Source: an uncultured virus (IMG/VR IMGVR_UViG_3300031720_000001) (Duplodnaviria > Heunggongvirae > Uroviricota > Caudoviricetes). From it: 64,000 nucleotides of DNA. The stretch lies in the IMG/VR virus record IMGVR_UViG_3300031720_000001, one strand, 5' to 3'. The position numbers and the translations under genes were made by a program. Below the pieces are notes generated by a model. That model ran no database searches, was not told the origin of the DNA, and saw only the letters and a program-made list of their open reading frames with translations. Below are positions 3,884 through 61,070 of this stretch, piece after piece (positions within the stretch are counted from its first letter, which is position 1; each line of letters starts with the position of its first letter).

Positions 3884-3884
3884 G

Positions 3885-45638: not shown

Positions 45639-47336
45639 ATGGCCTACAACCTACCAAATGCATGGGACCCGGGGTTCGCGCTCCCGTCCAATGTCGTCGA
45701 CGAGGGCCTCGAGCGGCGCGGCTTTGTCACCAAGCAGATGCCGCGCGGCACCTATGACAATCCATCGGTGGGGACGGGTGGCTTCGCGGTCCCCCAGTAC
45801 ATCAAGGACGAGGGCTACGGCCAGGGCACGTTCACCACCAAGTGGCAGCCGTCGGGCTCCTACAACGGTCCCAGGGTCCCGCCCTGGCTGAACCAGCGCC
45901 CCAAGGTCGTCCAGCAGCGCCGGCTCCCCGGCGGCGGCCATGCGTACACGGTCCAGCCGCTGGGGGACGACGACGCGCCGATGCCCGCGCCGTTCGAGCA
46001 GTACGGGCAGCGCGCGGCTGCCGAGCTCCTGTCGCGTATCCGCACCTTGCCGCCCGGTCGCCGGCAGGCCGCGATGAAGGCGATCATGGACCAGGTCGAC
46101 AAGAGCCTGTGGAAGCGCACCCAGGACATCACCAAGCGCTACGTGGCGCAGGGCGTACCGGTCGTGCAGGCGTTCCCGCAGGCGCTGGCGCGCGCGCTGG
46201 CGACCGGGATCGCGGCCGAGCTCATCGATACGGGTCTGCGACGTACTGCACCCCAGGCCGCCTCGCTCCTGGGCCTGGGGTGCTATGGGCCACAGGCCTT
46301 GGGAGCGACGCGGGCCTCGCATGTCTCGGGCACGATCCTGGGACAGGGGCCCGTTCTGGTGCCGCCAGCGGCGACGACCAAGGGGGTGGGGGTCTTGACC
46401 GCGCCGGCGGTGCCGGCCGAGCCGACGCTGGTGGTGGCGGGGGTGGGCTTCACGCCGTCCAAGCTGACGCGCGCGTGGGCCACCGGGGTGCCGTCCAGCA
46501 CGGTGGCCAACCGCGCGGCGCCGCCGGACGTGCAGATCGACGATCCCCGGGACATCCCGGCCGAGGCCATCGCGTTCTTGCGCGACCAGCTCCTCACGTA
46601 CGTGGGCGACACGACGCGGTCGTTTTGCAGCACGGACGCCACGACCGGGTTCCCCGAGTGGGACGCCAGCACGTGGTTTGGCGCGCTGGGGATCACCTGC
46701 GATAACAAGATGAACATGCACGCGCTCTGGCACCTGCGGACGGCGATCGCTCCGTTCGCGCGGGTCAAGAACGAGCTCACCGGCGAGCCCATGGTGCTGC
46801 ACATCTCGCTGGCGGCCCGTGACATCTCCAAGCCGGGAGACCCGACCGCAAACCCCTTGGCGCTCAAGTTCTGGCTCTCCAAGGTCCCGGATCTGAGTCT
46901 CTGGCAGTCGATCTGGAACACGCTCATCTGGCTGCCGATGAAGATCGACCAGCACGTGCTCGCGCCCATCGTGCAGCCGATTGTTGACGTCGTGGGCACG
47001 GCCGGAACGGTGATCGGGGCGGGCGCGGGCGCGGTCGGCGACGCGGTCGGCGACGGGCTCAAGAAGCTGGGCGATCTGGCCTGCGACCTGCTCAAGACCC
47101 CGGGCGTCGGCGCCGCAGCGGGCGCGGCGGGCGCGGCGGTGGCCGGGGTGCCCCCCCAGGCGGGCGCGCAGGCAGGCCAGGCGGGCGCGCAGATCGCGCA
47201 GGGCGTGTGTGGCGCGCCGCCCCCGCCGCCGATGTTCATGCCCCAGTCGTCGATCTTGCCACTGGCACTCCTGGGCGGGGTCGCCGTGGTGGGCGCGATG
47301 CTCCTGTTCGGCGGCAAGAAGCGGAGTCCCCCATGA
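45639..47336 (+). CDS. Large virion-like membrane protein
   Basis: AGGAG RBS; MAY start; C-terminal TM helix followed by KKR. Confidence 0.75.
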   Translation: MAYNLPNAWDPGFALPSNVVDEGLERRGFVTKQMPRGTYDNPSVGTGGFAVPQYIKDEGYGQGTFTTKWQPSGSYNGPRVPPWLNQRPKVVQQRRLPGGGHAYTVQPLGDDDAPMPAPFEQYGQRAAAELLSRIRTLPPGRRQAAMKAIMDQVDKSLWKRTQDITKRYVAQGVPVVQAFPQALARALATGIAAELIDTGLRRTAPQAASLLGLGCYGPQALGATRASHVSGTILGQGPVLVPPAATTKGVGVLTAPAVPAEPTLVVAGVGFTPSKLTRAWATGVPSSTVANRAAPPDVQIDDPRDIPAEAIAFLRDQLLTYVGDTTRSFCSTDATTGFPEWDASTWFGALGITCDNKMNMHALWHLRTAIAPFARVKNELTGEPMVLHISLAARDISKPGDPTANPLALKFWLSKVPDLSLWQSIWNTLIWLPMKIDQHVLAPIVQPIVDVVGTAGTVIGAGAGAVGDAVGDGLKKLGDLACDLLKTPGVGAAAGAAGAAVAGVPPQAGAQAGQAGAQIAQGVCGAPPPPPMFMPQSSILPLALLGGVAVVGAMLLFGGKKRSPP

Positions 47337-47794
47337 GCAAGCCCACCAAGAACGCGCGCGAACTGCTGGTCCAGATCGGCATCGGTCACTTCAACGCCAC
47401 GATGGTCATGCCGTACATGTTCATCGCGCCAGCGACCACCGATCCGAAGTCCGCGCAGACCATCCTAATGGTGCAGGCGATCCAGCGCGCGCTGTGGCAA
47501 CTGGGCGCGCACGACGTGGCCGAGTCGGGGCGGCTCGACGAACCGACCGCGCGCGCGCTGGCGCAGGTGGTGGGCCCCAACTGGGAGCGCACGACCTGGG
47601 CGGGCAACATCTCAGCGGTCCTGACGGCCCGGGAGAATGGGCTCTCGCTGGCCGCGCCCGAACTGCCGTCCGGCATGCCAGTGGCGGTCGGCGGACCTCT
47701 GGACTTCTTGCCCGACGTGCCGGGCGGGCTCGTCACGTACGCGGTGGGAGCGTACTTCCTCTACCGTCACTTCACGCGAAAGGCGCGCACATGA
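47333..47794 (+). CDS. Membrane-anchored protein with a peptidoglycan-binding-like segment
   Basis: VQAIQRAL..G.LD..TARAL; C-terminal TM plus basic tail. Confidence 0.6.
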   Translation: MSKPTKNARELLVQIGIGHFNATMVMPYMFIAPATTDPKSAQTILMVQAIQRALWQLGAHDVAESGRLDEPTARALAQVVGPNWERTTWAGNISAVLTARENGLSLAAPELPSGMPVAVGGPLDFLPDVPGGLVTYAVGAYFLYRHFTRKART

Positions 47795-48441
47795 CCTACA
47801 CCACCAGCATGGTCCCTCGCCGCCGTCGCCGCGCGATGCTGGGCGACGCAGCGGACGACGATCCGTTCGCGGAGTTCTGGGCGCTGCTCGAGGGCGGCCA
47901 GCAGCCCGCGCCGTCGGACAACGTCACCCAGACCACGGGGGGCGGCACGTCGACGTCGGCCTCCGACTTCACCAACGTCGGCGGGATCTGCAAGCCCATG
48001 AACTTCCCGGCGCTGGACGCGGTGCGGGCGCTGCAGGGCCAACTCAACCGGGTGGCGCAGGTGAAGGGGCTGTCCAAGACGGCAGTCGACGGGGCGATCG
48101 GCCCTGGGACGCTGGCGCTGTTCCGGAAGGTCCAGTCGGCATCGAACGGATCGGTGATGGGCGATCCATCGTCGTGCATGGGAGTGGCGCCGGATGTCGA
48201 CGTACTGGGGGCACAGGTCAAGGACCTGGCGGACATGCTGGGCGCACCGGCGACGGTATCGGGTCCCATCGGCATCACGGTCCCCACGATCGTGACCAAG
48301 AGCGGCAAGACGGTGGTGGCGCCGACCGGCGGGATCGCGGCGTCGCTGGCGTCGATGTCCGGGATCGAGAAGATCGCGATCGTGGGCGTGGCCGGGGCGA
48401 TCGGCTACCTCCTCCTGGGCAAGAAGAAGCGGAGGAAGTGA
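47791..48441 (+). CDS. Membrane-anchored protein with a peptidoglycan-binding-like domain and MxY leader
   Basis: MTY..RRRRRAMLGD; VRALQ..VDGAIGPGT; TM followed by KKKRRK. Confidence 0.7.
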   Translation: MTYTTSMVPRRRRRAMLGDAADDDPFAEFWALLEGGQQPAPSDNVTQTTGGGTSTSASDFTNVGGICKPMNFPALDAVRALQGQLNRVAQVKGLSKTAVDGAIGPGTLALFRKVQSASNGSVMGDPSSCMGVAPDVDVLGAQVKDLADMLGAPATVSGPIGITVPTIVTKSGKTVVAPTGGIAASLASMSGIEKIAIVGVAGAIGYLLLGKKKRRK

Positions 48442-48731
48442 TGTCCAGGTTCCTGCAGGATTGTGTGCGACCACCCGGATCTGTGTTGGTTCTGGGCGAT
48501 GACGGCGCGGCGGTTCCGGTGCCGGCCGCGCCGCCCTTCAACCTCCGCGGGGCGCTGACGTCCGAGCCGGTCAAGACGGCGTCGGCGATCGCGCTCACCT
48601 ACCACGGCTACCGGCGGACCGGCTCGATCGTCTGGGCGCTGATCTACGGCCTCGCCGGTCGTCTGGTGCCGGTCGCGGCGGTGCCGATCTCCCTGGCCCA
48701 GGGCTACGGGCAGAAGAAGAGTTGCCCGTGA
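48441..48731 (+). CDS. Small membrane protein
   Basis: YHGYRRTGSIVWALIYG..VPISLAQGYG. Confidence 0.65.
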   Translation: MSRFLQDCVRPPGSVLVLGDDGAAVPVPAAPPFNLRGALTSEPVKTASAIALTYHGYRRTGSIVWALIYGLAGRLVPVAAVPISLAQGYGQKKSCP

Positions 48732-49057
48732 AGTACGCTTATCAATACACCGGGGCACCGCTCCTGCAGTGGGGGATGCACGCGCCCTATCAGTCGCGCG
48801 CGGCCGACACGGTCGCGCTGGGCTCCTTGGGCGGCTCGACCCTGGCCGGGCCCACGCTGGTTCTGCCAGCGCCCGGCGCGCCCGAGCCGATCGACGTCAC
48901 GCCCGGCATGGGCGGCTGCAGCTGCAGCGGATCGTGTGGCTGTGGCACGGGCACGGGGCTGTCCGGATTCGTCGACGCGATCCCGGGCGGCTACGTGACG
49001 CTCGGGATCGGCGCGCTGATCGCGTGGAGGATGCTGCGCAAGAAGCGGAGGCGGTGA
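48728..49057 (+). CDS. Small membrane protein
   Basis: GTG-KY start; LGSLGG, GMGG; C-terminal TM followed by RKKRRR. Confidence 0.65.
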   Translation: MKYAYQYTGAPLLQWGMHAPYQSRAADTVALGSLGGSTLAGPTLVLPAPGAPEPIDVTPGMGGCSCSGSCGCGTGTGLSGFVDAIPGGYVTLGIGALIAWRMLRKKRRR

Positions 49058-49338
49058 GCATGCATGTCGTGGCGACCATCCTTGGTATGCGGATTCGCGT
49101 GTCGCGCATGCCCATAGGCTTTCGCGTCCAACGGCTTGATGGCAACGACCTATCCCCGCCACCGGGCATGGCACTGCCGATGATCGGCATTGTCTGGAGT
49201 GCCATGATCGATCACATCGGACGTGGAGAATCGCGTCCTGTCGCGGAGGAGGGCGATGGGGTCACACTGGATCTGGGTATCATTGAGGCATCTTATGCCG
49301 ACGACGAGAGCAGGTTAGCGGAGATCGAGGCAGGGTGA
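49054..49338 (+). CDS. Hypothetical protein with atypical (lower-GC) codons
   Basis: Overlaps both neighbours by 4 bp; many A/T-ending codons. Confidence 0.45.
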   Translation: MSMHVVATILGMRIRVSRMPIGFRVQRLDGNDLSPPPGMALPMIGIVWSAMIDHIGRGESRPVAEEGDGVTLDLGIIEASYADDESRLAEIEAG

Positions 49339-49625
49339 AGTACTCGGTCTACGACTACACGCGGCGCGCCTACGACTACTACGAGGCGCCCGGGCCCGGC
49401 GGCACGCACGCCGGATCGCCCGCGGTCGCGCGCTCGCTGGGCCAGATAGGCACCGCGCCCGATCGCGCGTCGTGGCGGCTGCCGCTGGGCGCCAAGCGGG
49501 TCGGCAGCGGAGAGCGCCCGCAGGGCCGGATCGCCAGCCTGGGGAGCATGGACCTGACCTCCAATCCGCTCCGCCTGGGCATCCTGGCGGTCCTGGCTTA
49601 CGTTGGCTGGAGGGCACTGCAATGA
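49335..49625 (+). CDS. Small membrane protein
   Basis: YSVYDY..YDYYE; C-terminal TM. Confidence 0.65.
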   Translation: MKYSVYDYTRRAYDYYEAPGPGGTHAGSPAVARSLGQIGTAPDRASWRLPLGAKRVGSGERPQGRIASLGSMDLTSNPLRLGILAVLAYVGWRALQ

Positions 49626-50350
49626 CCTACACGAGCACGGCCATCAAGCGCTATCGACGCAGGAAGCCTCGGGGCCTGGGCGACCTGCTGGAGGACATCT
49701 TCCGGGGCGCCGGCGGCGGCAGCGCCGAGCAGCAGTGCATCAATGCCGCGAACCAGACCATGGCGCCCTTCGATGCCAAGGTCGACGACCTGGCCAAGAC
49801 CTGGACCCCGACCGGGTTCTACACCAGCAGCGAGCTCCGCGACATGGTGAGCGTGACGCTCCAGGCCGTGACCCGCGCCCAGGCGGCGCTCGACGCGGCG
49901 GCAGCCGAGCCCAACGCGTCCCAGGCCAGCGTCATGCGGGCGACCGACGACCTCGCGCGCGCGGGCAGCCGGTCGCTCGACTACCTGGGCGCCGCGCAGA
50001 CGGCCGACCAGCAGGGCCTACGCGTCGTCAACGCCCCGGGCCTCAAGCGCTGGGTCACCGACACCCTGGGCACCGCGTCCAGCGCGATGATCACCGCGTC
50101 GGTGATCGGCTGCATCACGCCGTGGTGGGTGGGCGCGATGTCGGCATTCCAGTCGGCGTTCGATACCGCGTGGGCGTTCGCCAAGCGGCTCACCGGCGCC
50201 GTGATCGCGATCGGCGAGACCGTGCTCAAGGTCGCCGACGACCTCCCCCAACTCTACGACGTGCTCAAGTACGCCCTGGTCGCCGGCGGGGCCTACTGGC
50301 TCTACATCCAGCTTGCCAACCTCAAGAGCTCGGGGCGCACGGTCCTGTGA
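49622..50350 (+). CDS. Helical membrane protein with MxY leader
   Basis: MTY..KRYRRRKPRGLGD; C-terminal TM. Confidence 0.7.
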   Translation: MTYTSTAIKRYRRRKPRGLGDLLEDIFRGAGGGSAEQQCINAANQTMAPFDAKVDDLAKTWTPTGFYTSSELRDMVSVTLQAVTRAQAALDAAAAEPNASQASVMRATDDLARAGSRSLDYLGAAQTADQQGLRVVNAPGLKRWVTDTLGTASSAMITASVIGCITPWWVGAMSAFQSAFDTAWAFAKRLTGAVIAIGETVLKVADDLPQLYDVLKYALVAGGAYWLYIQLANLKSSGRTVL

Positions 50351-50907: not shown

Positions 50908-50909
50908 CC

Positions 50910-51359: not shown

Positions 51360-51647
51360 CACGTGGGGACCAGACCACCCAGAAAGTTTCCCGATGGCTC
51401 AACCAATGGCCATCGGCTCGGACGAGCGGCGGTCCGCGCGATCGACGCCTATATGATGGTGGCCAAGAAGGCGGCCGAGCTCGCCGACCACCTGGACCAA
51501 CTGACCGCCCCGGGCGTGATCCGGGCGCTGCTCTCGGACGAGGACAGCCTGGTCATCGTGATCAAGGAGCTCACCGAAGGTCGCGAGTTGTAGGCGGCGG
51601 GGAACGTGCCAACTACCCCTTAAACCATCCGTGATCTCGCGATCCTC

Positions 51648-51685
51648 CTTGCCAGTGGCAAGAAAGGTTCCGAAGGGGGTTGACA
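51648..51685 (+). promoter_or_regulatory. Operator plus -35-like TTGACA upstream of the core/capsid genes
   Basis: Palindrome at 51648-51662; TTGACA at 51680-51685; no clear -10 box. Confidence 0.55.
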
Positions 51686-51717
51686 TAACAAGGCACCCTG
51701 TCCGCAGCCTGGACGTG

Positions 51718-53331
51718 ATGCCGATCCTCTACGTGAACGGGAAGCGCCGCGGAATGCGGGTGCGCGGCAGGGCACGGGTGAGCCTGACCGGGAACCCGAA
51801 GCGGAAGGCACGCAAAGGCAAGGTGCCGCCCGCACTGGCGCGGTACTGGAAGGCGCGGCGCTCGCCGGGGTCGGTCACACGTCGGCGTCGCAAGGGTCGC
51901 AGCTTTCTGCTGCGTGCGCGGAAGGCTAACCCCGCCAAGCGGGTCACACGGCGTGCCCATCGCGGCGTGCACGGAGCTCCGGCCAACGCGGGGTTCTGGA
52001 AGAAGAGGCGCCGTAAAGGCCGCAAGGGGCGGTACTCGGCATACCTATCCAGCGTGGCCGACAGTCGCGGTCGGAAGTCACGACATCGCGGTCGGAAGGC
52101 ACGACATCGCCGTCGCGCCCAGGCGGAATGGCACAAGGACGGCCCGGGTGGGCGATGGGTCCAGGGAGTACGTCGCAAGAAACGTCGCAAGACCAGTCAC
52201 AAGCGGCGCCGTCGAGCCCGCAGGAGCACACCAGTCATGGCGAAGCGTCGGAAGACTCGAAGGAAAGGCGGCGGTCGCTCGAAGGCAGCGCGCCGTCGCG
52301 CGGCACTCAAGGGCGTGCGCCGTCGGCGAGCTCGCGCGGCAACGCCCAAGCGTCGTCGTCGTCGTCAGTCGCGCGCGCGCCACACTAGGCGCCCCCGGCG
52401 TCGTCGGTCGCGGCGGACTGCTACCAAGCGTCGCCGCCGTCGTCGGTCGCACGCGGCCCCGACGCGGCGTCGTCGCCGGTCTCGGCGGTCGCACACGACG
52501 AAGCGCCGCCGTCGCAGGCGGTCGGCCACGAGGCGCGTCACCCGTCGCGGTCGCGGCCGTCGTGCCCACCTCGCCAAGACGATCTTGATGATCCCGGGCA
52601 AGACCCTGCGCGGTAACCCGGGTCGCCGCCGCCGTCGGAAGTCTCGTCGGCGCGGGCGTCGATCGTACCGTCGGTACGGGCGGCGGCGCTACCGGCGCAA
52701 CCCGGGAGGCTTCCTGATCGACCTGGCCAAGCGCGCTCTGCCGGTGCTGTTCGGGTTCTACGGGACCCGGCTGATCGTGAGCCGCATCGGCCCGATGATC
52801 CCGGGCGTCGCATCGCTGGGCACGCTGGCCGGTCCTGTTTTGTCCGTAGGCTCGGTCATCGGCATGAACTACTTCACCAAGAAGGTGGCGTTCCTGGCCA
52901 AGCACCGGACCGAGCTCATGCTGGGCTCGATGTTCTCGGCGATCGACATCGTCATCCAGGCGTTCGCGCCCGCCAGCGTCAAGGCGCTGGTCGGCATGAG
53001 CGACTACGTGGCGGTCGGCGACTACTTCTCGATGGGCGCCATCCCGCTGGACGACCGGATGACGATGTCGGACTACGTGGCGGTCGGCGGCGACGGCGTC
53101 GAGGAGGAGCTCGGGCTCGAGGAGGAGCTCGGCGTCGAGGAGGAGCTCGGCAATGACCTCCTGGGCGGCATGCCGGGCGCGGCCTCGCTGATGAAGCAGG
53201 TCCCCACGCAGCGGTTCATGCAGCCGATCCCTGCCCGGTCGTTCACGCGCCAGATCCCGGCGGCCGGTACGTCGTACGACAACCCCAACCAGCTCTACGC
53301 CGGCATCTTCAACGGCGGGTTCGGTCGCTAG
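51718..53331 (+). CDS. Protamine-like Arg-rich core protein fused to a membrane domain and acidic repeats
   Basis: About 330 aa of Arg/Lys runs with NP motifs, then hydrophobic helices, MSDYVAVG x2 and EEELG x3. Confidence 0.75.
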   Translation: MPILYVNGKRRGMRVRGRARVSLTGNPKRKARKGKVPPALARYWKARRSPGSVTRRRRKGRSFLLRARKANPAKRVTRRAHRGVHGAPANAGFWKKRRRKGRKGRYSAYLSSVADSRGRKSRHRGRKARHRRRAQAEWHKDGPGGRWVQGVRRKKRRKTSHKRRRRARRSTPVMAKRRKTRRKGGGRSKAARRRAALKGVRRRRARAATPKRRRRRQSRARHTRRPRRRRSRRTATKRRRRRRSHAAPTRRRRRSRRSHTTKRRRRRRSATRRVTRRGRGRRAHLAKTILMIPGKTLRGNPGRRRRRKSRRRGRRSYRRYGRRRYRRNPGGFLIDLAKRALPVLFGFYGTRLIVSRIGPMIPGVASLGTLAGPVLSVGSVIGMNYFTKKVAFLAKHRTELMLGSMFSAIDIVIQAFAPASVKALVGMSDYVAVGDYFSMGAIPLDDRMTMSDYVAVGGDGVEEELGLEEELGVEEELGNDLLGGMPGAASLMKQVPTQRFMQPIPARSFTRQIPAAGTSYDNPNQLYAGIFNGGFGR

Positions 53332-53433
53332 CTTCACCCCGAGATTCGAGATGCGGCGGGAGGCACCCGCCAGGTGACCACCCGGGGAAGTCCCCGCTCA
53401 CCGAACCAAACGTACAAGCAAGGACCTTCCGAC

Positions 53434-54009
53434 ATGCCTCGTCTCCACGGTTACCGCGAGCGTCTCCACCAGCCGGTGTGGGACACCCTCATTCGCACCA
53501 CCGGCGATCCGACGAACCCGATCGTCAACAGCACCAAGCTGTTTGGCAACGCGAACATCGGCAACCTCGCGCTCACCAACCTTCAGGTCGCCGGCCAACT
53601 CGCGTCCGATCAGACGTACGTGATCCTGGCGCTCCGGTGCTGGATGTTCTTCGACGGGACCAACCGCCGGAACAACTACCTGAACGTCACGTCGCAGTTG
53701 TTCTGGACCCTGGTCGTGGGCAACAAGCCCATGTTCCAGGCGCCGTGCTGGTACCACCCCGCCGGCGGCGGCGTCTGGGGCTTCGACTCGACCGCGTCGA
53801 TCTTCTCCCACGGCACGCCGGAGCAGGCGTCGATCCTGAAGCTCGCGCGTCCGATCATTGTTCCGGTGCGCCAGAACTTCGCGGCCTCCGCGGACTTCTT
53901 CGCGATCGGCACGACCTCGGCGCTGGACGGCCTCAACAGCGGCGCCACCGACGACGTGAAGAACATCATGTACATGCTGGACGGTCTGCAGACCCGCGAC
54001 GTCCAGTGA
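53434..54009 (+). CDS. Candidate major capsid protein 1 (single jelly-roll-like)
   Basis: 191 aa, beta-rich, strongly biased codons, AAGGA RBS; position after the core protein gene; fold is inferred. Confidence 0.6.
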   Translation: MPRLHGYRERLHQPVWDTLIRTTGDPTNPIVNSTKLFGNANIGNLALTNLQVAGQLASDQTYVILALRCWMFFDGTNRRNNYLNVTSQLFWTLVVGNKPMFQAPCWYHPAGGGVWGFDSTASIFSHGTPEQASILKLARPIIVPVRQNFAASADFFAIGTTSALDGLNSGATDDVKNIMYMLDGLQTRDVQ

Positions 54010-54129
54010 ACTAGCGCATCCGCGCTGGCGGCACCCCGAGATTCGAGCCTGTTACCGTCGGGGCCAAACCCTCGACGCGCACCACCCCGGCACGGGCCGG
54101 GCGCACCCCTTTCTCCGGGAGATCGACTC

Positions 54130-54753
54130 ATGGCCGGCAACGATCAGATCGCAGCGCTCATCCGCGGGCACAACACTGCGATCCGCAACCTCCAGCAGGG
54201 CCAGGCCCAGATCATCGCCGCGCTCAACGCGCTGCAGAGCCGTCCCCGGACCATCCAGGAGGAGATCGACGCCATCGAGGGGCGACGCATCGAAGGCGTG
54301 CTCTCGGGGGAGGTCACGTTCACCGCCGCCGACGTCGGACAGCGCGCGGCGCCCATCGTGTTTCAGGTTTCGCAGGATGGGCCGTTCATCATGACGCACT
54401 ACCCGCTGTGTCTGTGGCGGCCGACCGCGCCCACCAACGCCACCAACCTCAACCGGTGGCGCCCGGTGTCGACGTTCCCCCTGCCCGACCAGGTCGTCGA
54501 CACCGACATCATCGATCTGCTGTACGAGCTCAACGACGGCGGATCGCAGCGCCTGGGCCAGAACGAGGCGCGAGGCCCGCTGTTCTCCAGGCCCGACAAC
54601 ATCGTGCCGTGCCCCATCCCGACGGTGTGGTCGCCCAACGCGGCCATCCTGTTCCAGCCCACCTACCTGCGGTTGACCTGGGATGGCACCGTCGCACCGA
54701 CCCAGGGCACGCTCCACGTCGATCTGATCGGCTACCGCATCGCCAACCTCTGA
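54130..54753 (+). CDS. Candidate major capsid protein 2 (single jelly-roll-like)
   Basis: 207 aa, beta-rich; V.QDGPF..L.DGGSQR..P.P..L.V.L.GY; GGAG RBS; fold is inferred. Confidence 0.55.
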   Translation: MAGNDQIAALIRGHNTAIRNLQQGQAQIIAALNALQSRPRTIQEEIDAIEGRRIEGVLSGEVTFTAADVGQRAAPIVFQVSQDGPFIMTHYPLCLWRPTAPTNATNLNRWRPVSTFPLPDQVVDTDIIDLLYELNDGGSQRLGQNEARGPLFSRPDNIVPCPIPTVWSPNAAILFQPTYLRLTWDGTVAPTQGTLHVDLIGYRIANL

Positions 54754-55286
54754 TGTCCTACCACCGCCCACCGCGCTTGGCCCTGGTCGGTCGCGCTCGC
54801 GGCCGGAGCGAAACCATGTCCGGAGCCCTGCCCGTGGGCGACGTGGCCGGGTTGGTGGCGGGCGACCAGTTGCCGCAACTGGCCGCGGTCGTCAACCGGT
54901 TCGGGCCCGGCGCGCCGGCCGCCTACCAGTTCACCAGCAAGGTCTTCCCGGTTGCCACTGGCAAGATCGATCCCGAGATCGCGCTGGTGGCGACCACCAT
55001 CTACCTCCGGCGGGCGACCGACGCCTACAGCCAGTTCCACGATCCGGGGTCGGCGGCGGCGATCGCGCGGGCCAACGCGGGGTTTGGCGATCCGGTCGGC
55101 TTTGTGACCGCGAACCTGGCCGACGTGGTGACGACGATCGGCGGGTTCGCCGACAGCCTGGGGCTCCCCGCTGCGGGGGGCGCCGGATCGCTCCCGGGGC
55201 TCCCTTCCACGATCGCGGGGATCGACACGCAGACTGTCCTCCTGGTTGCAGGCGGGGCCCTTGCGCTCTGGATGGTGACCCGATGA
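54753..55286 (+). CDS. Membrane-anchored protein with MxY leader
   Basis: MSYHRPPR..VGD; C-terminal TM. Confidence 0.65.
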   Translation: MSYHRPPRLALVGRARGRSETMSGALPVGDVAGLVAGDQLPQLAAVVNRFGPGAPAAYQFTSKVFPVATGKIDPEIALVATTIYLRRATDAYSQFHDPGSAAAIARANAGFGDPVGFVTANLADVVTTIGGFADSLGLPAAGGAGSLPGLPSTIAGIDTQTVLLVAGGALALWMVTR

Positions 55287-55894: not shown

Positions 55895-55912
55895 CCGAGC
55901 TCGGCTAAGGCC

Positions 55913-55950
55913 GCCCGTCGACGCAAGTCGGCGCGGGAGGTTTTTGTTTC
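55913..55950 (+). terminator. Possible intrinsic terminator
   Basis: Imperfect GC hairpin around a GCAA loop followed by TTTTTGTTT. Confidence 0.45.
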
Positions 55951-56027
55951 GAACACCAATAAGAAAACCCGGAGAGACGCGCCTGCCCAGAGCGGCGGGC
56001 GACCTTGGCCGAGCTCCACGAGACACC

Positions 56028-56375
56028 ATGAACTACATCCGCCGATACCGACGCCCGCGACCCCGTGCGATGCACGGGATGGGCGATCTCGCGAGCACGA
56101 TCGGGACCGCGATCGACATCGCTGCCGATCCGTATCTGGCGGAGGTGGTCTGCCGCATCGGGCAGCTCAAGAACATCGATCACGGCGAGCCGGTGGCGAC
56201 CTGCGTGGAGACCCCGCCGGGCGCGATCGGTGGCGTCGGGCTTCGCAACGCCGCGCCGGTCCTGCGGGGCTACGTCTACGCCCAGCAGAACAAGTGGGTG
56301 TACCCCCTGGCGGTGATGGTCGTCTTGGGGATCCCGCTCCTGATCGGCTACGAGCTCGGAAAGGGGCAAGGATGA
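56028..56375 (+). CDS. Small membrane protein with MxY leader
   Basis: MNYIRRYRRPRPRAMHGMGD; C-terminal TM. Confidence 0.7.
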   Translation: MNYIRRYRRPRPRAMHGMGDLASTIGTAIDIAADPYLAEVVCRIGQLKNIDHGEPVATCVETPPGAIGGVGLRNAAPVLRGYVYAQQNKWVYPLAVMVVLGIPLLIGYELGKGQG

Positions 56376-56662
56376 AGACCTCCACGCTCTTGCTCCTGGG
56401 TGGCGCGGCGGTCGTCGGCTACCTGTACGCCAAGCGCAAGGCGGATGGCGCGGCGGCGGCGACGACCCGGGCGCAGTCGCTGACCGCCCCGGCGCCGACC
56501 GTCAACGTCATCGTCGACCGCGACGACGACTACGGTCCTGCGTGGTCGTGGGGTGGCCCGGCCTGGGGCGCCCGATCGTGGGGCGGCTTTCGAGGCGGCG
56601 GCCACGGTCACGGTCACGGCGGCCACGGCCATGGCGGCCACGGCCATGGAGGGCACCACTGA
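56372..56662 (+). CDS. Small membrane protein with Gly/His-rich tail
   Basis: N-terminal TM; GHGHGHGG repeats. Confidence 0.6.
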   Translation: MKTSTLLLLGGAAVVGYLYAKRKADGAAAATTRAQSLTAPAPTVNVIVDRDDDYGPAWSWGGPAWGARSWGGFRGGGHGHGHGGHGHGGHGHGGHH

Positions 56663-57312
56663 TGAGCTACGAACGCGATCCGGATCGATCGACCCGGGGC
56701 CCGGGGGCGATCGCCGCGCTCGATCGACCGGGCGGCCGGCGCGATCAGCGGCGGGTCATGCGCGCGCAGGCCACGATCGCCCGCGATCGGGCGATGTCCG
56801 CCGTCACCCGTGGGGCGCTCGGCCGGATCGCGCTCGACAAGCCGCCCGGCAGCGGGATCTCGATCGTGCCCAAGATCCCGATCAAGGTGGCGGCGCCCCC
56901 ACCCCCACTGCCCCTGCCGGTGGGTCCCGTGATGGTCCGGTTCCCGGACAGCCCGCCACCGTCCCCGGTGCCGCTGCCCATGCCGGTCACGACGATGAAG
57001 CCGCCGACCACCGTCGAGTCGCCGCCCATCATCCCGATCATCACGCCGGTCGTCGACCTGCCGCCGCTGGCGCTACCCCCGATCCCTGGCCCGTCGGGCG
57101 GCAAGAGCTCGGGCGGATCGGGCGGGATGAGCTCGGGCGCGGGCACGGTCATGACCAGCGGGGGCGTCCGGCCGCCGATCCAGGTCACCATCGGGCCCGA
57201 TGCCCCGCTCCCGGACGTCGCCGTGGCCGAGGACCACACCACCCGGAACCTCTTGCTGGTGGGTGGCGGCGCGCTGGCGCTCTACCTGCTCCTGCGCAAG
57301 CGAGGTCGGTGA
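56662..57312 (+). CDS. Pro-rich membrane-anchored protein
   Basis: MSY start; C-terminal TM followed by RKRGR. Confidence 0.65.
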   Translation: MSYERDPDRSTRGPGAIAALDRPGGRRDQRRVMRAQATIARDRAMSAVTRGALGRIALDKPPGSGISIVPKIPIKVAAPPPPLPLPVGPVMVRFPDSPPPSPVPLPMPVTTMKPPTTVESPPIIPIITPVVDLPPLALPPIPGPSGGKSSGGSGGMSSGAGTVMTSGGVRPPIQVTIGPDAPLPDVAVAEDHTTRNLLLVGGGALALYLLLRKRGR

Positions 57313-57590
57313 TGGGCTACCTGGCCCCCGGAGACTTCGCGGCGTGGCGGCGCCGCCACGGCCTTGGTGACGGGCCGATCACGAGCCCGTCGCAGGTGGA
57401 CGCGCCCGCAGACACGGGATGGTTGCAGACGCTGGTCAGCGACCTGTTCGCACCGAGCTCAGGCGCGGCAACGCCCGGGCCCGAATCGGGGGCCGCCGGG
57501 AGCTCGGGCGTGCCCGCTTGGCTCCTCGTGGCAGCGGCGGGCGGCCTGGGGTACTACCTGCTCACCCGCCAGAGGAAGAAGAGGGCGTAA
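57312..57590 (+). CDS. Small membrane protein with MxY leader
   Basis: MGY..RRRHGLGD; TM followed by RQRKKR. Confidence 0.7.
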   Translation: MGYLAPGDFAAWRRRHGLGDGPITSPSQVDAPADTGWLQTLVSDLFAPSSGAATPGPESGAAGSSGVPAWLLVAAAGGLGYYLLTRQRKKRA

Positions 57591-57976
57591 TGCCGTACTT
57601 TCGCAAGCTGCCTCCCGCGCCCCGCCCCCGCTCGCTGTTCGGGTTCGGGGACTTCAACGACGAGTCGCCGTGCGCGTCGATCCCGGTCGGCGATGCGTAT
57701 CGCAAGCCGGGCAACTACTGCGCCACCGCCGATGGCGGCTACACGACCTTCAACGCGGACGGGTCGGTCTACGCGGTCCCGGTCGCCAAGCCACCGGACA
57801 CCTCGATCATCGGCAAGATCGGCGGCGCCATCCTGGGCGCGCTCACCCCCCAACCACCGGTCTACCCCCCGGGCATGATGCCCGGCGTGCCGGTCGGGAT
57901 GTCCACCACCACCAAGATCGCCCTGGCCGGCGGCGCGCTCCTGGTGGTCGCACTGATCGCGCGTCGCCGCGGATAA
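57590..57976 (+). CDS. Small membrane protein with MxY leader
   Basis: MPYFRK..RPRSLFGFGD; TM followed by RRR. Confidence 0.7.
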   Translation: MPYFRKLPPAPRPRSLFGFGDFNDESPCASIPVGDAYRKPGNYCATADGGYTTFNADGSVYAVPVAKPPDTSIIGKIGGAILGALTPQPPVYPPGMMPGVPVGMSTTTKIALAGGALLVVALIARRRG

Positions 57977-57985
57977 AGGACCTCC

Positions 57986-58267
57986 ATGGCCTACACCAAG
58001 AACACCCTCATCAGCCGCGCGGGCTACAACGGCCGTCGCAACGGCATGGGCGACGTCTGGGACTCGATCACGGGCGCTGCAGGGTCCGTATTGAAGTTCT
58101 ACGGGACGTCGCAGCAGGCCCAGGGCGCCGCGCTGGCCACCGCGCAGCAGAACAAGGACCTTACCACGGCGCTCCTGTCGCGCCAGGGCATGGGGATGGA
58201 GACCATCCTGCTCCTGGGCGGCGTGGGGCTGGCGGCGTTCCTCCTGCTCCGCAAAAAGAGCGCGTAG
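57986..58267 (+). CDS. Small membrane protein with MxY leader
   Basis: MAY..RRNGMGD; TM followed by RKK. Confidence 0.75.
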   Translation: MAYTKNTLISRAGYNGRRNGMGDVWDSITGAAGSVLKFYGTSQQAQGAALATAQQNKDLTTALLSRQGMGMETILLLGGVGLAAFLLLRKKSA

Positions 58268-58774
58268 ATGGCGCAGGCGCTCAGCATCGACCTGACCGAC
58301 CCAGCCGTCCAGCGCATGTTGGGGGGTGGGGAAGTTGCCAGTGGCAAGCGAGGCATCGTCCAACTCGCGGGCGACCGGGGGATGTCGTCCACGACCTACC
58401 TCGAGCAGGGCAAGCACGAGGTGGTGGTGGTCTACAAGGACACATTCCTGACGGTGGATGTGTACTTGGTGGCGGGCGCCGTGCCGGAGGTGTGGGTCAT
58501 CTGCCCCGGGTGCCACAAGGCCTGTCGCATCCCCAGCGGCACCAAGGCGGTGGACTTCGATCCGGGCGCCCCCAACCCCGTGCGGGCGCAGATCGTCAGA
58601 TCGGGGGTGCGCGAACTCATCGCGATGGCCGCGCGCGGCCGGCTCTCGGTCGAGCCGTTCCAGTGCACGTGGGAGACCGGTGGCGAGGCCCACGTCGCGG
58701 GTGGGGTGCACACCGGCGCGTCGCTGTGCCGGCAGAAGCTCGTGATCGACGATAACCGCGCCAAGGACGCGTGA
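58268..58774 (+). CDS. Zn-binding hypothetical protein
   Basis: ICPGC..FQCTW..LC. Confidence 0.6.
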   Translation: MAQALSIDLTDPAVQRMLGGGEVASGKRGIVQLAGDRGMSSTTYLEQGKHEVVVVYKDTFLTVDVYLVAGAVPEVWVICPGCHKACRIPSGTKAVDFDPGAPNPVRAQIVRSGVRELIAMAARGRLSVEPFQCTWETGGEAHVAGGVHTGASLCRQKLVIDDNRAKDA

Positions 58775-58777
58775 CGT

Positions 58778-60454
58778 GTGGCGGTCATGCCCCGGGAACT
58801 CCGGTTCGAGCAGCGGATCATCCTGGAGGGGATGGCGCGGGCTCTCTGGGTGCATGCGTTCATGATCTGGTCGATCGAGGTCGAGCCGCCGCCCTACCCC
58901 GTCCAGGGCGGCGATGATGTCCGGTGGGATGACATCGCTCCCGACAACGCGTCGACGCGCGCCGCTTCGGGCCAAGCGGCGGAGGCGCTGGCGCAGTTGA
59001 TTGGCCAGGCGAACCGCCTGGGCGACTATCCGCTGGCGAAGCTGTTTGCCAAGGTGTCCGCGAAGTGGGACGCCGATCGCGCGTACGCCTTCGGTCAGGA
59101 GGTCGCGCACCTCTGCATGGGGACGCGCGATGCGGACGACAGCGTGTTCTTCCTACCGCGAGGCCGGCCCGGTGCCGGTGAACGGCGATGGGACCCGGTG
59201 CTCCCAAACTTCAAGGTCGATCTCGACGATGACGGGCGGGATCTGACCTGGGACGGTGGGCTCAGCTACCCGACGCGGAACTGCGGATGCCACGCCAACC
59301 CTGCCGCCCCGGGCGAGGTCAAGCAGATCCTGGTGATCGAGGACGACCCGCAACTCCAGCGCGCGTATCCCCGGATGATGCGCAAGATGTACCCCGGTGC
59401 AGAGGTCACGATCGTCGACAACTACGACGACGCGATCGGCTACCTGGACACCCGCCCGGCCGACCTCATCATCAGCGATGTCGATCTGGTGGGCGACCGA
59501 ACGGGCATCGACGTGTTCGGGTGGGTGCGGGAGAACCACCCCGAACTCGTGGACCGCTACGTGTTCGTGACCGGCGGCAACCCCCAGGTCGAGCAATTGC
59601 ACTACCGCTATGCGGAGAAGCCCGCGACGGTCGCGGAGATCCAGGCGGCGATCGACAAGCCGACGCCACGCCAGAACCCACCCTCGAAGACGGTGACCGC
59701 CGCGGCGGCGCGCAAGCTGGTGAAGGTCCCGATCTCGGACGAGGCTGCGGAGCGGGTCGCCGAGTGCATCAACGAGGTCGTGCGATCGGCGCAGAGCGCA
59801 CCACCGCGGGCGCCGCCGGGCGACTTCCGGGAGCGATTCGACGCGGCGTTCGACCGACTGGATCGCGGCCATAACTACGTGCTGGTCTACGACCTACGCC
59901 AGGCGCTGCCGGATCTGTCGCGGGCGGAGTTCGATGCCGCGCTCAACCACTTGCGTCGCCAGAAGCTCTATTCGATGGACAGCGCCGACGGCCGCCACGT
60001 GAGGCTGTCGGCTCCGCAGCGCGAGGCGGGCATCCAGGAGGCCGGATCGAACCTGGTCTATGTCCAGCGCCGCGAGCCGCCGATGAAGGCTGTGCCGATC
60101 ACCCGACCGATGGACCTCCCGACGTTCGCAGCAGCGGTCCTGGAGGTGCTGCCCACGATCGAGCAGGACCCAGATGCCGACGATCGAGCGCGCGGGCGGT
60201 TCGGGTCCGAGAAGGTGTTCATCGGCGCGATCTGGCGTCGCCTCGAGCACGATCCGCGGTTTGCCGGGATGACCAAGGCGCAGTTCCAGCGCCACCTCGT
60301 CGACGCCCAGCGCGAGGGGATCCTGAATCTGGCGCGCGCGGACCTGGTGGCCGCGATGAACCACGCCGAGGTCATGTCATCCGAGATCCGCGATCACGGA
60401 TCGGAGTTCCACTTCGTGATCGATCCCGTCGCGCGCCAGCGCCGAGGTTGGTGA
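58778..60454 (+). CDS. Multidomain protein with a central response-regulator receiver domain
   Basis: ILVIEDD..DLIISDVDL..TG.D..FVTG..EKP; domain bounded by ANP and RQNP. Confidence 0.7.
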   Translation: MAVMPRELRFEQRIILEGMARALWVHAFMIWSIEVEPPPYPVQGGDDVRWDDIAPDNASTRAASGQAAEALAQLIGQANRLGDYPLAKLFAKVSAKWDADRAYAFGQEVAHLCMGTRDADDSVFFLPRGRPGAGERRWDPVLPNFKVDLDDDGRDLTWDGGLSYPTRNCGCHANPAAPGEVKQILVIEDDPQLQRAYPRMMRKMYPGAEVTIVDNYDDAIGYLDTRPADLIISDVDLVGDRTGIDVFGWVRENHPELVDRYVFVTGGNPQVEQLHYRYAEKPATVAEIQAAIDKPTPRQNPPSKTVTAAAARKLVKVPISDEAAERVAECINEVVRSAQSAPPRAPPGDFRERFDAAFDRLDRGHNYVLVYDLRQALPDLSRAEFDAALNHLRRQKLYSMDSADGRHVRLSAPQREAGIQEAGSNLVYVQRREPPMKAVPITRPMDLPTFAAAVLEVLPTIEQDPDADDRARGRFGSEKVFIGAIWRRLEHDPRFAGMTKAQFQRHLVDAQREGILNLARADLVAAMNHAEVMSSEIRDHGSEFHFVIDPVARQRRGW

Positions 60455-60458
60455 GGGG

Positions 60459-61070
60459 ATGGCGTACGCGCGACGCCATGGCGGTCGGATCGCAATGGGG
60501 GCGACGGTCTCGACCGCAGCACCCGAGGCCGGACGGCCGCAGCCGCCGATCTACCCGCTCCAGATCGGCGCGCACGGCGGCTGGCGCGAGGTCCGCGCGT
60601 CACCCGCGGATGGAGCGTGCGGCGTGCACGGCTACCCGTGCGAGCACCCGGGCGTCGACGTCGCGGGGGCGGCCGGGACCTGGGTGGTCGCGCCCGAGTC
60701 CGGCACCATCGTGATGGTGGGCGACGGCAACGCGCCGCCGTTCGTGGGCTACGGGCCGTGGTTCGCGATCATCTTGGGCCAGAGCGGAAAATACCACTTC
60801 CTGGGGCACCTCGAGCCGGGGACGGCCGGGATTGGCCCCATGGGAACGGAGGTGGTGGCCGGGCAGCCGATCGGGACCACCAGCTCGGCCAACCATACCC
60901 ACTGGGAGGTTCGATCCAAGATGGTCCCGGACTTCGCGGCCGGGGAGGATAACTTCTCCAACAACACCGATCCGATCGGCTGGCTCGCGATGGCGGCGCT
61001 CGGCCTTGGGACCATCCTGGTCGTCGGCGGCGCGGTCCTTCTGTTTGTCCTCTTGCGGAGGCGGTCATGA
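60459..61070 (+). CDS. M23 family peptidase with C-terminal membrane anchor
   Basis: HPGVD, GHL, HTHWE; TM followed by RRRS; MAYARR leader. Confidence 0.8.
   Translation: MAYARRHGGRIAMGATVSTAAPEAGRPQPPIYPLQIGAHGGWREVRASPADGACGVHGYPCEHPGVDVAGAAGTWVVAPESGTIVMVGDGNAPPFVGYGPWFAIILGQSGKYHFLGHLEPGTAGIGPMGTEVVAGQPIGTTSSANHTHWEVRSKMVPDFAAGEDNFSNNTDPIGWLAMAALGLGTILVVGGAVLLFVLLRRRS

Follow-up and report, generated by a model that had tools for sequence, protein, structure and literature searches.

A conserved N-terminal tag on predicted membrane-anchored late proteins of an uncultured bacterial virus and a transglutaminase-like enzyme that may remove it

Introduction

Can proteins with little else in common be marked for the same viral particle by a short sequence at their N-terminus, and is that sequence then cut off? 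This question is raised by the late genes of the uncultured virus described here. The window (the whole stretch of DNA that was analysed) comprises 64 kb of a virus genome of ~86 kb, which possesses terminal repeats and has a G+C content of 68%.

General Features of the Virus and its Late Module

The source is an uncultured bacterial virus with jelly-roll capsid proteins and no tail genes, belonging to a group so far undescribed. No tailed-phage prohead protease, portal, terminase or HK97-type capsid protein was found by Pfam and PHROG searches (E ≤ 0.001–0.01) in the window or in the scanned part of G001, a complete relative from which 34 proteins, mainly of its 46–86 kb region, were included in the Pfam scan. 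The virus encodes both a GH25 lysozyme and an M23 peptidase (Pfam), and apart from M23 no further protease was detected by Pfam in the window and the scanned part of G001. The late module was taken as the plus strand from 43 to 64 kb, in which 30 proteins were counted.

A single jelly-roll, capsid-like protein is predicted at 53434..54009 (plus strand), with 675 homologues and an AF2 model of pLDDT 78. The best structural match of this model by VIA-align was SPV1 6oj0_T (Z 8.5, 136 aligned residues, rmsd 3.4), the next rows being at Z 6.7; the capsid proteins of SH1, HCIV-1, HHIV-2 and P23-77 ranked after SPV1. The gene at 51631..53331 (plus strand) encodes an Arg/Lys-rich, core-like protein which has, near its C-terminus, three tandem tag-like modules of the form D-Y-hydrophobic-x-hydrophobic-G-[DAGS], followed by EEELG repeats. 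These modules account for three of the seven motif matches found proteome-wide (shuffles, 2.1 ± 1.4). A short paralogue of this core protein is located at 4612–5244, adjoining the tagged gene at 4240..4602. The gene content suggests a particle with a jelly-roll shell, a membrane inside it and a DNA core rich in Arg; we infer the membrane within the particle from one feature, the many small, putatively anchored proteins of the structural module.

Late Proteins Carrying a Shared Tag

The tag has three parts, namely M-x-Y at the start, a basic linker that differs greatly in length and the motif [G/A]-[L/M/V]-G-[D/A/G/S]. The original prediction had named a series of ORFs as sharing such a leader, and all of these were found, with their starts as described. 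On the plus strand they include 47791..48441 (MTY, RRRRR, AMLG-D; predicted to be tail-anchored, with orthologue leaders of 7–22 residues), 49622..50350 (MTY, YRRRKPRGLG-D) and 57312..57590 (MGY, RRRHGLG-D), together with the putatively tail-anchored products of 54753..55286 (MSY, LPVG-D), 56028..56375 (MNY, RRYRRPRPRAMHGMG-D), 57590..57976 (MPY, RSLFGFG-D) and 57986..58267 (MAY, RRNGMG-D). In the family of 56028, all 13 orthologues keep M1 and Y3 but differ in the linker. The tagged, putatively tail-anchored protein at 60459..61070 (plus strand; MAY, RIAMG-A) is an M23 peptidase (Pfam Peptidase_M23, E 2e-9), and a distant tagged protein is encoded on the minus strand at 4240..4602 (MSY, PRRRRRALAG-D, LGSLG-D). 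The 565-aa protein at 45639..47336 (plus strand) begins M-A-Y (9 of 10 orthologues share the Tyr at residue 3), ends in a predicted C-terminal anchor with a KKRSPP tail and contains an internal Y-T-V-Q-P-L-G-D-D-D at residues ~101–110.

The listed ORFs do not agree in all details. Three plus-strand genes lack a clear G-D motif: 56662..57312 (M-S-Y, T-R-G-P-G-A-I-A, predicted C-terminal anchor; Tyr at residue 3 in 9/9 orthologues) and two genes with GTG starts, 48728..49057 (M-K-Y, A-L-G-S-L, RKKRRR tail) and 49335..49625 (M-K-Y-S-V-Y-D-Y). A predicted small membrane protein at 48441..48731 (plus strand) has the G-D motif (V-L-G-D-D) and no Tyr in the window; Tyr is present in its orthologues, which start MMY, MRY or MY. 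The predicted small anchor protein at 63243..63431 (plus strand), whose start codon is uncertain, has an internal M-Y-V-G-D directly before its hydrophobic segment.

Enrichment of the Tag over Controls

Tyrosine occupies residue 3 in 12 of the 30 late-module proteins compared with 2% expected, Tyr making up 2.1% of residues and x-Tyr following 7 of 348 internal Met residues; outside the late module it is found there in 4 of 56 proteins. The binomial P for Tyr at residue 3 is 5e-13, or 3e-5 when five alternative starts per gene are allowed. A composite scan of stop-to-stop ORFs was also carried out, with the N-terminal criteria of a start codon, Y or F at residues 2–4 and hydrophobic-G/S-small within 45 residues, and the C-terminal criteria of a hydrophobic segment and a tail with at least two basic residues. 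This gave 9 matches among 100 late plus-strand ORFs versus 1 among 118 late antisense ORFs, and 0/266 and 3/261 in the left 43 kb. The leader motif was thus enriched over controls far beyond chance, as had been anticipated, the antisense and non-late ORFs being nearly empty.

At 68% G+C, Arg, Gly and Ala are plentiful, and two pairs of tagged proteins (47791 with 57312 being the one named) show weak similarity, so that the pattern could be regarded as a by-product of high G+C, start-codon choice or paralogy of small proteins. This is very improbable given the nearly empty controls. Furthermore, start codons were set by alignment position, independently of Tyr, and most of the tagged proteins are without mutual similarity in an all-against-all BLASTP comparison, in keeping with their description as otherwise unrelated. 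The tag is not a nucleotide artefact either, as codon 2 is diverse and Tyr is kept (in the 94 orthologues that have Tyr at residue 3, 25 forms of codon 2 were found, whereas codon 3 was TAC in 83 and TAT in 11), and the pattern holds across the G+C range, persisting in relatives of 50–70% G+C, including L028 at 50%.

Conservation in Related Viruses

Orthologues on 12 related virus contigs retain the tag. For 12 of the 13 window families starting M-x-Y, Tyr was found at residues 2–4 in 6–13 of 9–13 orthologues, and the family of 57312 has two members only, both with Tyr at residues 2–4. In the orthologue comparison no tag was seen on the capsid-like proteins, the enzyme, 50347, 55283 and 58268. 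At 42 distinct related loci, selected for encoding the enzyme, the tag was identified downstream of the enzyme gene in 165 of 1504 ORFs versus 9 of 1706 antisense ORFs, with at least one match at every locus. The 13 distant loci (enzyme identity ≤57%) gave 41/415 ORFs versus 3/459 antisense. Judged from sequence, the leader is a real, conserved and modular signal on late proteins which are predicted to be membrane-anchored.

Architecture of the Leader and of the C-Terminal Anchor

Leaders are 7 to ~37 residues in length (median 18), orthologues differing by large indels, and M-x-Y is separated from the Gly motif by 0 to ~20 residues; modularity of this kind would be typical of a propeptide. 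The Arg-rich stretch, originally listed as an element of the leader, is missing from orthologues with leaders of 7–8 residues and so cannot be an essential part. Upstream of the junction the mean charge is +3.0, and over the next 12 residues it is −1.8, with Arg at 15.7% before the junction versus 0.8% after, and P3 is Gly or Ala in 61 of 100 junctions; the rule used for locating junctions partly fixes P2, P1 and P1′, and places no constraint on P3 and the charges. The residue following the junction is Asp, Ala, Gly or Ser, and never the Cys of a lipobox.

At the C-terminus, tagged proteins have a hydrophobic anchor and then a basic tail. It had been predicted that nearly all would end in a transmembrane helix and basic tail, which proved correct for the majority: 8 of 12 tagged proteins passed a strict hydropathy cut-off versus 1 of 18 untagged proteins (Fisher P 6e-4), the remaining four having C-termini that are hydrophobic but weaker. 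A dozen of the late proteins are best explained as single-pass membrane proteins held by a C-terminal anchor, and their location would be the virion membrane. Their topology is ambiguous, since a basic leader and a basic tail around one hydrophobic segment cannot both satisfy the positive-inside rule. A helix with a basic tail is likewise a feature of sortase and exosortase sorting signals; no signature motif common to the families was seen ahead of the helix on inspection, and no sortase or exosortase was detected by Pfam in the window or the scanned part of G001.

The leader may also be considered as an export or membrane-insertion signal for host machinery, in which case the N-terminal domain would cross the membrane and the basic tail would stay in the cytoplasm. 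Such a tail is compatible with the cytoplasm by the positive-inside rule, and the peptidoglycan peptidase 60459–61070 would have to get to the cell wall. However, the hydrophobic core of a signal peptide was not found in 94 orthologue sequences, the best 10-residue hydropathy within the first 30 residues having a median of 0.6 and reaching at least 1.8 in 5 of the 94, and the leaders have neither a lipobox Cys nor a twin-Arg consensus followed by a hydrophobic stretch. Sec, Tat and lipoprotein signal peptides were rejected for want of this core. In addition, the enzyme has no visible signal peptide, yet in relatives a tagged module follows it in the same polypeptide. An export role is therefore considered improbable.

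The Candidate Leader Peptidase

The candidate leader peptidase is the 209-aa product of 44988..45617 (plus strand), which was originally put forward as a Cys-His-Asp enzyme. This assignment is upheld by C130, H168 and D185, which are invariant among 47 aligned relatives; in total 709 relatives were found at E ≤ 1e-3. The enzyme is present in all nine loci reaching that far, the window included, and in this virus it has neither tag nor membrane anchor. Pfam Transglut_core is matched by 31 of the 47 relatives (best E 1.3e-16) and Peptidase_C93 (BTLCP) by just one, the window enzyme itself matching no family at E ≤ 0.01. Its sequence profile matched LapG (4u65_E) in the PDB at E 0.0011. The AF2 model (pLDDT 88.8) gave Foldseek matches to 3kd4 (E 8e-5), LapG 4u65_E (1e-4), LapG 4fgq and 3isr, with further matches to PeiP, PeiW, TgpA, Rad4 and PNGase, all of them modest (E 8e-5 to 1e-3, TM 0.3–0.5, prob 0.9–1.0). 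On the evidence of alignment and model, the enzyme is assigned a transglutaminase-like fold with the papain-type order of the triad.

Among the longer relatives of the enzyme, encoded by other viruses, 11 of 22 contain a homologue of the tagged protein 49335–49625 as a fused module, and 19 of the 22 have a hydrophobic C-terminal segment. The fusion homology begins at the Tyr of this protein, downstream of the enzyme domain, and BLASTP with 49335–49625 identified P0177 (E 4e-12) and P0144 (E 5e-11), both alignments running from residue 3. Among 24 fusion proteins, not all of them independent, hydrophobic-G-[DE] occurred 19 times within 52 residues downstream of the catalytic Asp versus 3.7 expected, a five-fold enrichment found in 13 of the 24. 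Gene position and natural fusions support a genetic tie between the enzyme and the tagged proteins.

Proposed Function of the Tag

It is proposed, with a probability of roughly 0.45, that the tag is a sorting signal which is probably removed by the transglutaminase-like cysteine enzyme 44988–45617. M-x-Y would form an aromatic anchor adjoining the free N-terminus, the basic linker being optional, and the junction would consist of [G/A]-[L/M/V]-G, then D/A/G/S and an acidic stretch. The tag would serve as an assembly or sorting signal marking viral membrane proteins for the nascent particle and would probably be clipped at the Gly junction by the enzyme, which is encoded at the operon head and whose S2 pocket would take up the hydrophobic residue of the junction, as is the case in papain-type enzymes. 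A tentative and rather doubtful extension would treat the tag as a code that lets an internal-membrane virus select its own proteins from the host membrane. The capsid or scaffold lattice under assembly, or the enzyme, would capture the tail-anchored proteins by the tag, the triplicate module would tether the Arg-rich DNA-condensing protein to this machinery, and the transglutaminase-like protease would then trim the tags, so that the particle matures.

Some observations count against cutting. A protease that reads just its cleavage site needs no Tyr near a free N-terminus, a feature which docking fits at least equally, and three tandem copies of the motif in the core protein are more typical of a repeated binding module. 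The tag could thus be an uncleaved docking peptide, its Y-hydrophobic-x-hydrophobic-G-D strand binding the capsid or scaffold lattice and tethering the tail-anchored and core proteins to the shell, and the enzyme would then have another job, such as cell-wall hydrolysis at entry or protein cross-linking. This agrees with the restriction of Tyr to residues 2–4 and with the retention of the tandem internal copies in 12 of 13 relatives. The prophage cell-wall isopeptidases PeiP and PeiW are among the structural neighbours of the enzyme model, making a lytic role possible, and in other viruses the enzyme is predicted to be membrane-anchored, like the M23 peptidase of this virus. However, the variable linker between the motifs is odd for one docking strand, and a processing site is suggested by the small residues at the junction, by the hydrophobic residue located two positions upstream of it and by the sharp charge switch. 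The virus also has a lysozyme and an M23 peptidase already. Docking without cleavage is regarded as the less likely explanation, though one to be taken seriously.

Comparison with Known Systems

The proposed removal of a sorting signal by the enzyme has partial parallels elsewhere. LapG is described as a Cys-His-Asp transglutaminase-like protease which cuts LapA in its N-terminal module between the small residues Ala108 and Ala109, and the distance of this site from the N-terminus is conserved (PMC3032545). With LapG and the bacterial transglutaminase-like cysteine proteinases (BTLCP), the enzyme here has in common the Cys-His-Asp residues and the transglutaminase-like fold, and LapG chains are among its best profile and fold matches. 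Unlike LapG, which is periplasmic, controlled by c-di-GMP and has one large adhesin substrate, it has no apparent signal peptide and would act on about a dozen small candidate viral substrates. The B (B2) protease of lasso-peptide systems is reported to be homologous to transglutaminases and to remove a leader with a conserved Tyr motif, YxxPxL (PMC10368454). There, too, the Tyr motif lies in the leader at some distance from a small-residue junction, but the tagged proteins here are predicted membrane proteins of 60–565 aa and not peptides. Lasso-peptide biosynthesis was rejected because of this size range and because Pfam searches of the window and the scanned part of G001 detected neither a macrolactam synthetase (asparagine-synthetase-like) nor a PqqD-like leader-recognition protein.

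In phage T4, the capsid targeting sequence (CTS) is removed by the prohead protease gp21. The diverse internal proteins of T4 are described as having only the conserved CTS in common, which encapsidates them into the scaffolding core (PMC3012670). The likeness is an analogy of design only, in that a short N-terminal tag is common to otherwise unrelated particle proteins. T4 differs in being a tailed phage whose tag directs soluble internal proteins to the head and whose protease is of another class. Here, the cargo would be membrane proteins with a tail anchor, and the candidate for the protease is transglutaminase-like.

The original prediction took adenovirus protease (adenain) as its model; the catalytic arrangement of adenain is His-Glu/Asp-Cys. 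The order of its catalytic residues along the chain is reported to differ from papain, and its sites to combine a hydrophobic residue with Gly, e.g., IVGL-G (PMC4246237). Adenain is similar in being a virion cysteine protease with hydrophobic and Gly sites and with basic core-protein precursors among its substrates, but the substrates in adenovirus lack both a tail anchor and an N-terminal Tyr. With its Cys-His-Asp triad and transglutaminase-like fold, the enzyme here is not a relative of adenain, and the comparison is an analogy only; identity with adenain was rejected on the differing catalytic order and on the absence of adenain chains from the 50 best Foldseek matches.

Sulfolobus polyhedral virus 1 (SPV1), SH1, HHIV-2 and P23-77 are internal-membrane viruses which likewise possess a single jelly-roll capsid protein and many small membrane proteins in the structural module. 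The genomes of these named viruses are roughly 17–31 kb, compared with ~86 kb here, where the host is bacterial and uncultured. For viruses of this kind the Simuloviridae family profile gives genomes of 16–19 kb (PMC12642351). No common tag or transglutaminase-like enzyme was found in the literature for SPV1, SH1, HHIV-2 and P23-77.

Significance

The sequence comparisons point to a so far undescribed way of sorting, and perhaps trimming, viral membrane proteins. To our knowledge, how viral proteins are selected over host proteins when the internal membrane of PRD1 or PM2 is built remains unsolved, and a portable tag on a dozen unrelated anchored proteins would open this selection to direct testing. 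We know of no transglutaminase-like cysteine protease acting as a virion maturation enzyme; if the proposal is true, virion maturation gains a new enzyme class. The tag also provides a practical marker of structural membrane proteins where almost nothing matches Pfam or PHROGs, and the proposal, if true, would give a handle on a widespread group of ~86 kb viruses without a published description, as indicated by the numbers of homologues of the capsid-like protein and of the enzyme.

Genome context of the late module

The G+C content of the 64-kb window was found to be 62–72%, with a mean of about 68%. Its genes are encoded on the minus strand as far as about 40 kb, and the plus strand takes over from 43 kb. 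The left part carries accessory genes of the phage type, encoding GP88, DUF5131, an integrase, a C5 methylase, DnaN, and a GH25 lysozyme that includes a peptidoglycan-binding domain. Pfam and PHROG matches are nearly absent from the plus-strand module at 43149–63640, in which an M23 peptidase and a receiver domain were the sole matches above Pfam's own cut-off. A response-regulator receiver domain (Pfam E 4.6e-8) lies in a 558-aa late protein (58778–60454, plus strand), which is unusual inside a structural module. A 718-aa protein encoded at 61067–63223 (plus strand) contains some eight repeats in tandem, each roughly 36 residues long (F-T-T-x-L-Q-G-x-V-P-A-S-G ... L-R-G-D-x-T-W-S-T). Relatives share its first 200 residues and differ at the C-terminus, the pattern expected of a host-recognition fibre. 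A coiled-coil protein is encoded at 43149–44960.

Syntenic relatives of the window are found on contigs of 55–88 kb, from soils and sediments; two of them, G001 and G002 (86,414 and 86,334 bases), have direct terminal repeats and are classed as complete. No terminase, portal or HK97-type capsid was detected by Pfam in the window or in the scanned part of G001 (34 proteins, mostly from 46–86 kb). In a part of its genome beyond the window's coverage, G001 also encodes a 653-aa protein (L017:14498–16459) whose Cas12f1-like TNB domain stays under the family's cut-off (Pfam E 5.9e-5). No cultured phage matches, none of 50,697 phage records giving a match. Three MAG bins with related contigs were labelled Peribacteria, Galbitalea, and Myxococcales; these labels are mutually inconsistent and no host is therefore claimed for the virus.

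A shared N-terminal tag on late proteins

The original prediction described a leader of M-x-Y, an Arg-rich stretch and a hydrophobic-Gly motif on otherwise unrelated late ORFs. Every example it listed is present in the window, and the sharing is real, with Tyr found at residue 3 in 12 of 30 late-module proteins (binomial P 5e-13, rising to 3e-5 once five possible starts per gene are allowed for) as opposed to 4 of 56 proteins outside the module. Tyr makes up 2.1% of all residues, and of 348 internal Met, 7 are followed by x-Tyr. Enrichment was controlled with the antisense strands, with shuffled sequences, and with the left 43 kb.

The tag is also conserved. Orthologue starts in 12 related loci were set by alignment position and not by Tyr, and on this basis Tyr stands at residues 2–4 in 6–13 of 9–13 members in twelve of the thirteen M-x-Y families of the window and in both members of the small 57312 family. 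No orthologue of the capsid-like proteins, the enzyme encoded at 44988–45617, 50347, 55283, or 58268 has Tyr in these positions. The 94 orthologues with Tyr at residue 3 use 25 distinct codons for residue 2 but only TAC and TAT for the Tyr, which indicates selection at the protein level.

To anchor the leaders, the earliest hydrophobic-[G/S]-small motif with a non-basic stretch behind it was taken as the junction, a rule which itself fixes P2, P1, and P1' in part, and 100 of 105 leaders (from 11 families) could be anchored. In 56028, for example, the junction reads G-M-G with Asp behind it. They range from 7 to about 37 residues with a median of 18, three longer values probably being misplaced anchors. 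Leaders carry a mean charge of +3.0 and the 12 residues behind them one of -1.8, with Arg falling from 15.7 to 0.8% and Asp rising from 2.2 to 13.5%. The rule leaves the position ahead of the hydrophobic residue free, and Gly or Ala occupies it in 61 of 100 leaders. Between orthologues of one protein, the linker may differ by 20 residues, and the shortest leaders (M-G-Y-L-S-M-G then D; M-T-Y-L-R-P-M-G then D-D) have no basic stretch at all. The N-terminal Tyr and the Gly junction of the predicted leader are thus its conserved parts, but the Arg-rich stretch is optional.

A prepilin-type leader was ruled out, as the Gly is not followed by a hydrophobic stretch with Glu. Transglutaminase cross-linking through the motif was also rejected, since Asp, Ala, Gly, and Ser, none of them an acyl donor, account for most residues after the Gly; Gln occurs directly after the junction Gly only in the lineage of the very distant contig L029.

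Membrane anchors, core-like and capsid-like proteins

Under a strict hydropathy threshold, a hydrophobic C-terminal segment is present in 8 of 12 tagged and 1 of 18 untagged proteins (Fisher P 6e-4). In the remaining four tagged proteins, the C-terminus is more weakly hydrophobic. Most of the C-terminal tails contain 3–6 Lys/Arg. The basic leader and the basic tail flank one hydrophobic segment, and they cannot both lie on the cytoplasmic side. A central Gly-Gly or Gly-x-Gly, which may be a helix-packing motif, is common to the anchors of 45639, 47791, 56662, 57312, 57590, 57986, and 60459 (for example, L-L-L-L-G-G-V-G-L-A-A-F-L-L-L).

The unit found in the tag recurs, as D-Y-hydrophobic-x-hydrophobic-G-[DAGS], in three tandem copies inside the Arg-rich protein encoded at 51631–53331, just ahead of its EEELG repeat, and the triple unit is retained in 12 of 13 orthologues. 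In its strict form, this motif is found 7 times in the proteome compared with 2.1 ± 1.4 times in shuffles. This protein (plus strand, 566 aa) has about 350 Arg/Lys-rich residues, then two hydrophobic segments, and EEELG repeats at its end; it resembles a core protein that condenses DNA. Its 210-aa paralogue at the opposite end of the window (4612–5244, minus strand) lacks the long basic stretch. R-R-N-P-G or R-K-N-P-G punctuation recurs in basic proteins, both in the window (53190–53240) and in the very distant contig L028 (L028:13534–15138).

The protein encoded at 53434–54009 has 675 homologues, all unnamed, and its AF2 model (pLDDT 78) is a jelly roll. Structurally it aligns best with the Sulfolobus polyhedral virus 1 capsid protein, at Z 8.5 over 136 residues with an rmsd of 3.4; the matches below it, starting at Z 6.7, include capsid proteins of HCIV-1, HHIV-2, P23-77, and SH1. 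Another capsid-like protein is encoded at 54130–54753. A second set of capsid-like paralogues is encoded on the minus strand (21884–22621, 27887–28534, 25509–26306, 28948–29721, 227–592, and 3521–3976), two of which are related to 53434–54009; one pair in this set begins M-x-Y-P-Q-P and another M-A-F-T-G. In a distant relative, the capsid-like gene is interrupted by an ORF with a LAGLIDADG-type motif (L027:14244–15672), the insert being either a putative intron or a putative intein with a homing endonuclease.

The candidate maturation enzyme

Pfam gave no match for the 44988–45617 protein itself, and 709 relatives were found in the representative library at E≤1e-3. Among 47 aligned relatives, D103, E108, D129, C130, G145, H168, and D185 are invariant, which upholds the predicted Cys-His-Asp enzyme (C130, H168, D185). 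Pfam assigned 31 of these relatives to Transglut_core, eight to DUF553, four to the CEP76 peptidase-like domain, two to Rad4, and one to BTLCP. Searched against the PDB, the enzyme profile matched PNGase and, at E 0.0011, LapG (4u65_E), and the AF2 model (pLDDT 88.8) matched 3kd4, LapG, 3isr, PeiP, and TgpA. On these grounds the protein is a transglutaminase-like enzyme with a Cys-His-Asp triad in papain order and not an adenain, and the likeness to adenovirus protease in the original prediction does not hold as kinship.

Five relatives (P0143, P0145, P0149, P0167, and P0221) carry a large intein-like insert directly ahead of the catalytic Cys (D-C-D-D box), which would fit an important, highly conserved active site. 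The possibility that the enzyme is itself tagged was ruled out, as some close relatives have M-G-Y-G-G at a possible start and others L-G-Y-G-G or P-G-Y-G-G there. Complex prediction of enzyme residues 36–209 (47 rows) with residues 1–50 of the tagged protein 56028–56375 (13 rows) scored 0.00 in both runs and is evidence neither way.

Linkage and fusion of tag and enzyme

Viral and metagenome contigs were scanned with a 12-row enzyme alignment. This yielded 51 loci, including the window, in which the enzyme gene is followed by 3 kb or more of sequence; 42 were distinct after removal of nine duplicates. A composite tag-plus-anchor scan of these 42 matched 165 of 1504 plus-strand ORFs vs. 9 of 1706 antisense ORFs, with 1–6 matches in every locus; in the 13 loci with enzyme identity ≤57%, the counts were 41 of 415 and 3 of 459. 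The same design is seen on the very distant contig L028 (49.5% G+C, enzyme 36% identical), where leaders include M-Y-V-D-K-L-Q-G-V-G then I-L-D-D and also M-Q-F-L-S-G-L-G, and where each of the proteins concerned has a C-terminal anchor with a basic tail. In L029 (58.7% G+C) the junction is G-L-G-Q, and the enzyme is fused to a segment Y-A-R-L-R-G-L-G-Q-D-D plus a C-terminal anchor. These results show that the tag travels with the enzyme; as the loci were selected for having the enzyme, they are silent on the tag without it.

Fusions were analyzed in 22 longer enzyme relatives (267–322 aa) picked by length. A hydrophobic C-terminal segment is present in 19, of which 15 have at least two basic tail residues, and 11 of the 22 contain the Y-S-V-Y-D-Y module of the tagged protein 49335–49625. 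BLASTP of the latter matched P0177 (E 4e-12) and P0144 (E 5e-11), both alignments beginning exactly at Tyr 3. In 24 fusion-type proteins the catalytic Asp is recognizable, and the 52 residues that follow it contain 19 occurrences of hydrophobic-G-[DE], where the remaining sequence of these proteins would predict 3.7; the sites lie in 13 of the 24 and some are homologous, so that the counts are not independent. Self-processing viral polyproteins are usually laid out in this way, the protease being joined to a substrate-like module by the site that it cuts. The parallel is suggestive and falls short of proof.

Proposed role and alternatives

A joint reading, to which we give a probability of about 45%, is that the tagged proteins would populate an internal virion membrane and that the tag would direct them to the assembling particle, as the internal copies may do for the core protein. 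The enzyme would cut after the junction Gly, and its S2 pocket would accommodate the hydrophobic P2 residue, in the manner of papain-type enzymes. The main rival, somewhat unlikely, is that the tag is an uncleaved docking strand and that the enzyme has another job, e.g., cell-wall hydrolysis; the requirement for Tyr next to a free N-terminus and the tandem internal copies in the core protein favor it. A host export signal is improbable, as hydropathy revealed no hydrophobic core in the leaders, which are therefore not classical signal peptides. That the tag is a compositional artefact is contradicted by the controls and deserves hardly any credence. The interpretation first proposed is supported in part: the tag, its modularity, conservation and limitation to anchored late proteins, the enzyme fold and triad, the linkage, and the fusions are shown, and the internal membrane, the sorting by the tag, and the cut are inferred.

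The closest design precedent for the tag is the T4 capsid targeting sequence, which is removed by gp21. Diverse T4 internal proteins have only this sequence in common, and it loads them into the scaffolding core (PMC3012670). LapG, the closest enzyme precedent, is a BTLCP with a C-H-D triad and cuts LapA between Ala108 and Ala109 (PMC3032545). The lasso-peptide B protease, homologous to transglutaminases, removes a leader whose YxxPxL motif lies well upstream of the junction (PMC10368454), and adenovirus protease, of a separate cysteine protease class, recognizes sites such as IVGL-G (PMC4246237). None of the four systems is known to pair tail-anchored membrane proteins of a virus with a transglutaminase-like enzyme. 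Literature searches, with subscription journals and supplements outside their coverage, found no paper on this virus group, on phage membrane proteins that have a tag in common, or on a transglutaminase-like maturation protease. The tagged, putative particle proteins and the candidate maturation enzyme, with its putative cleavage, are a system in an undescribed group of viruses.
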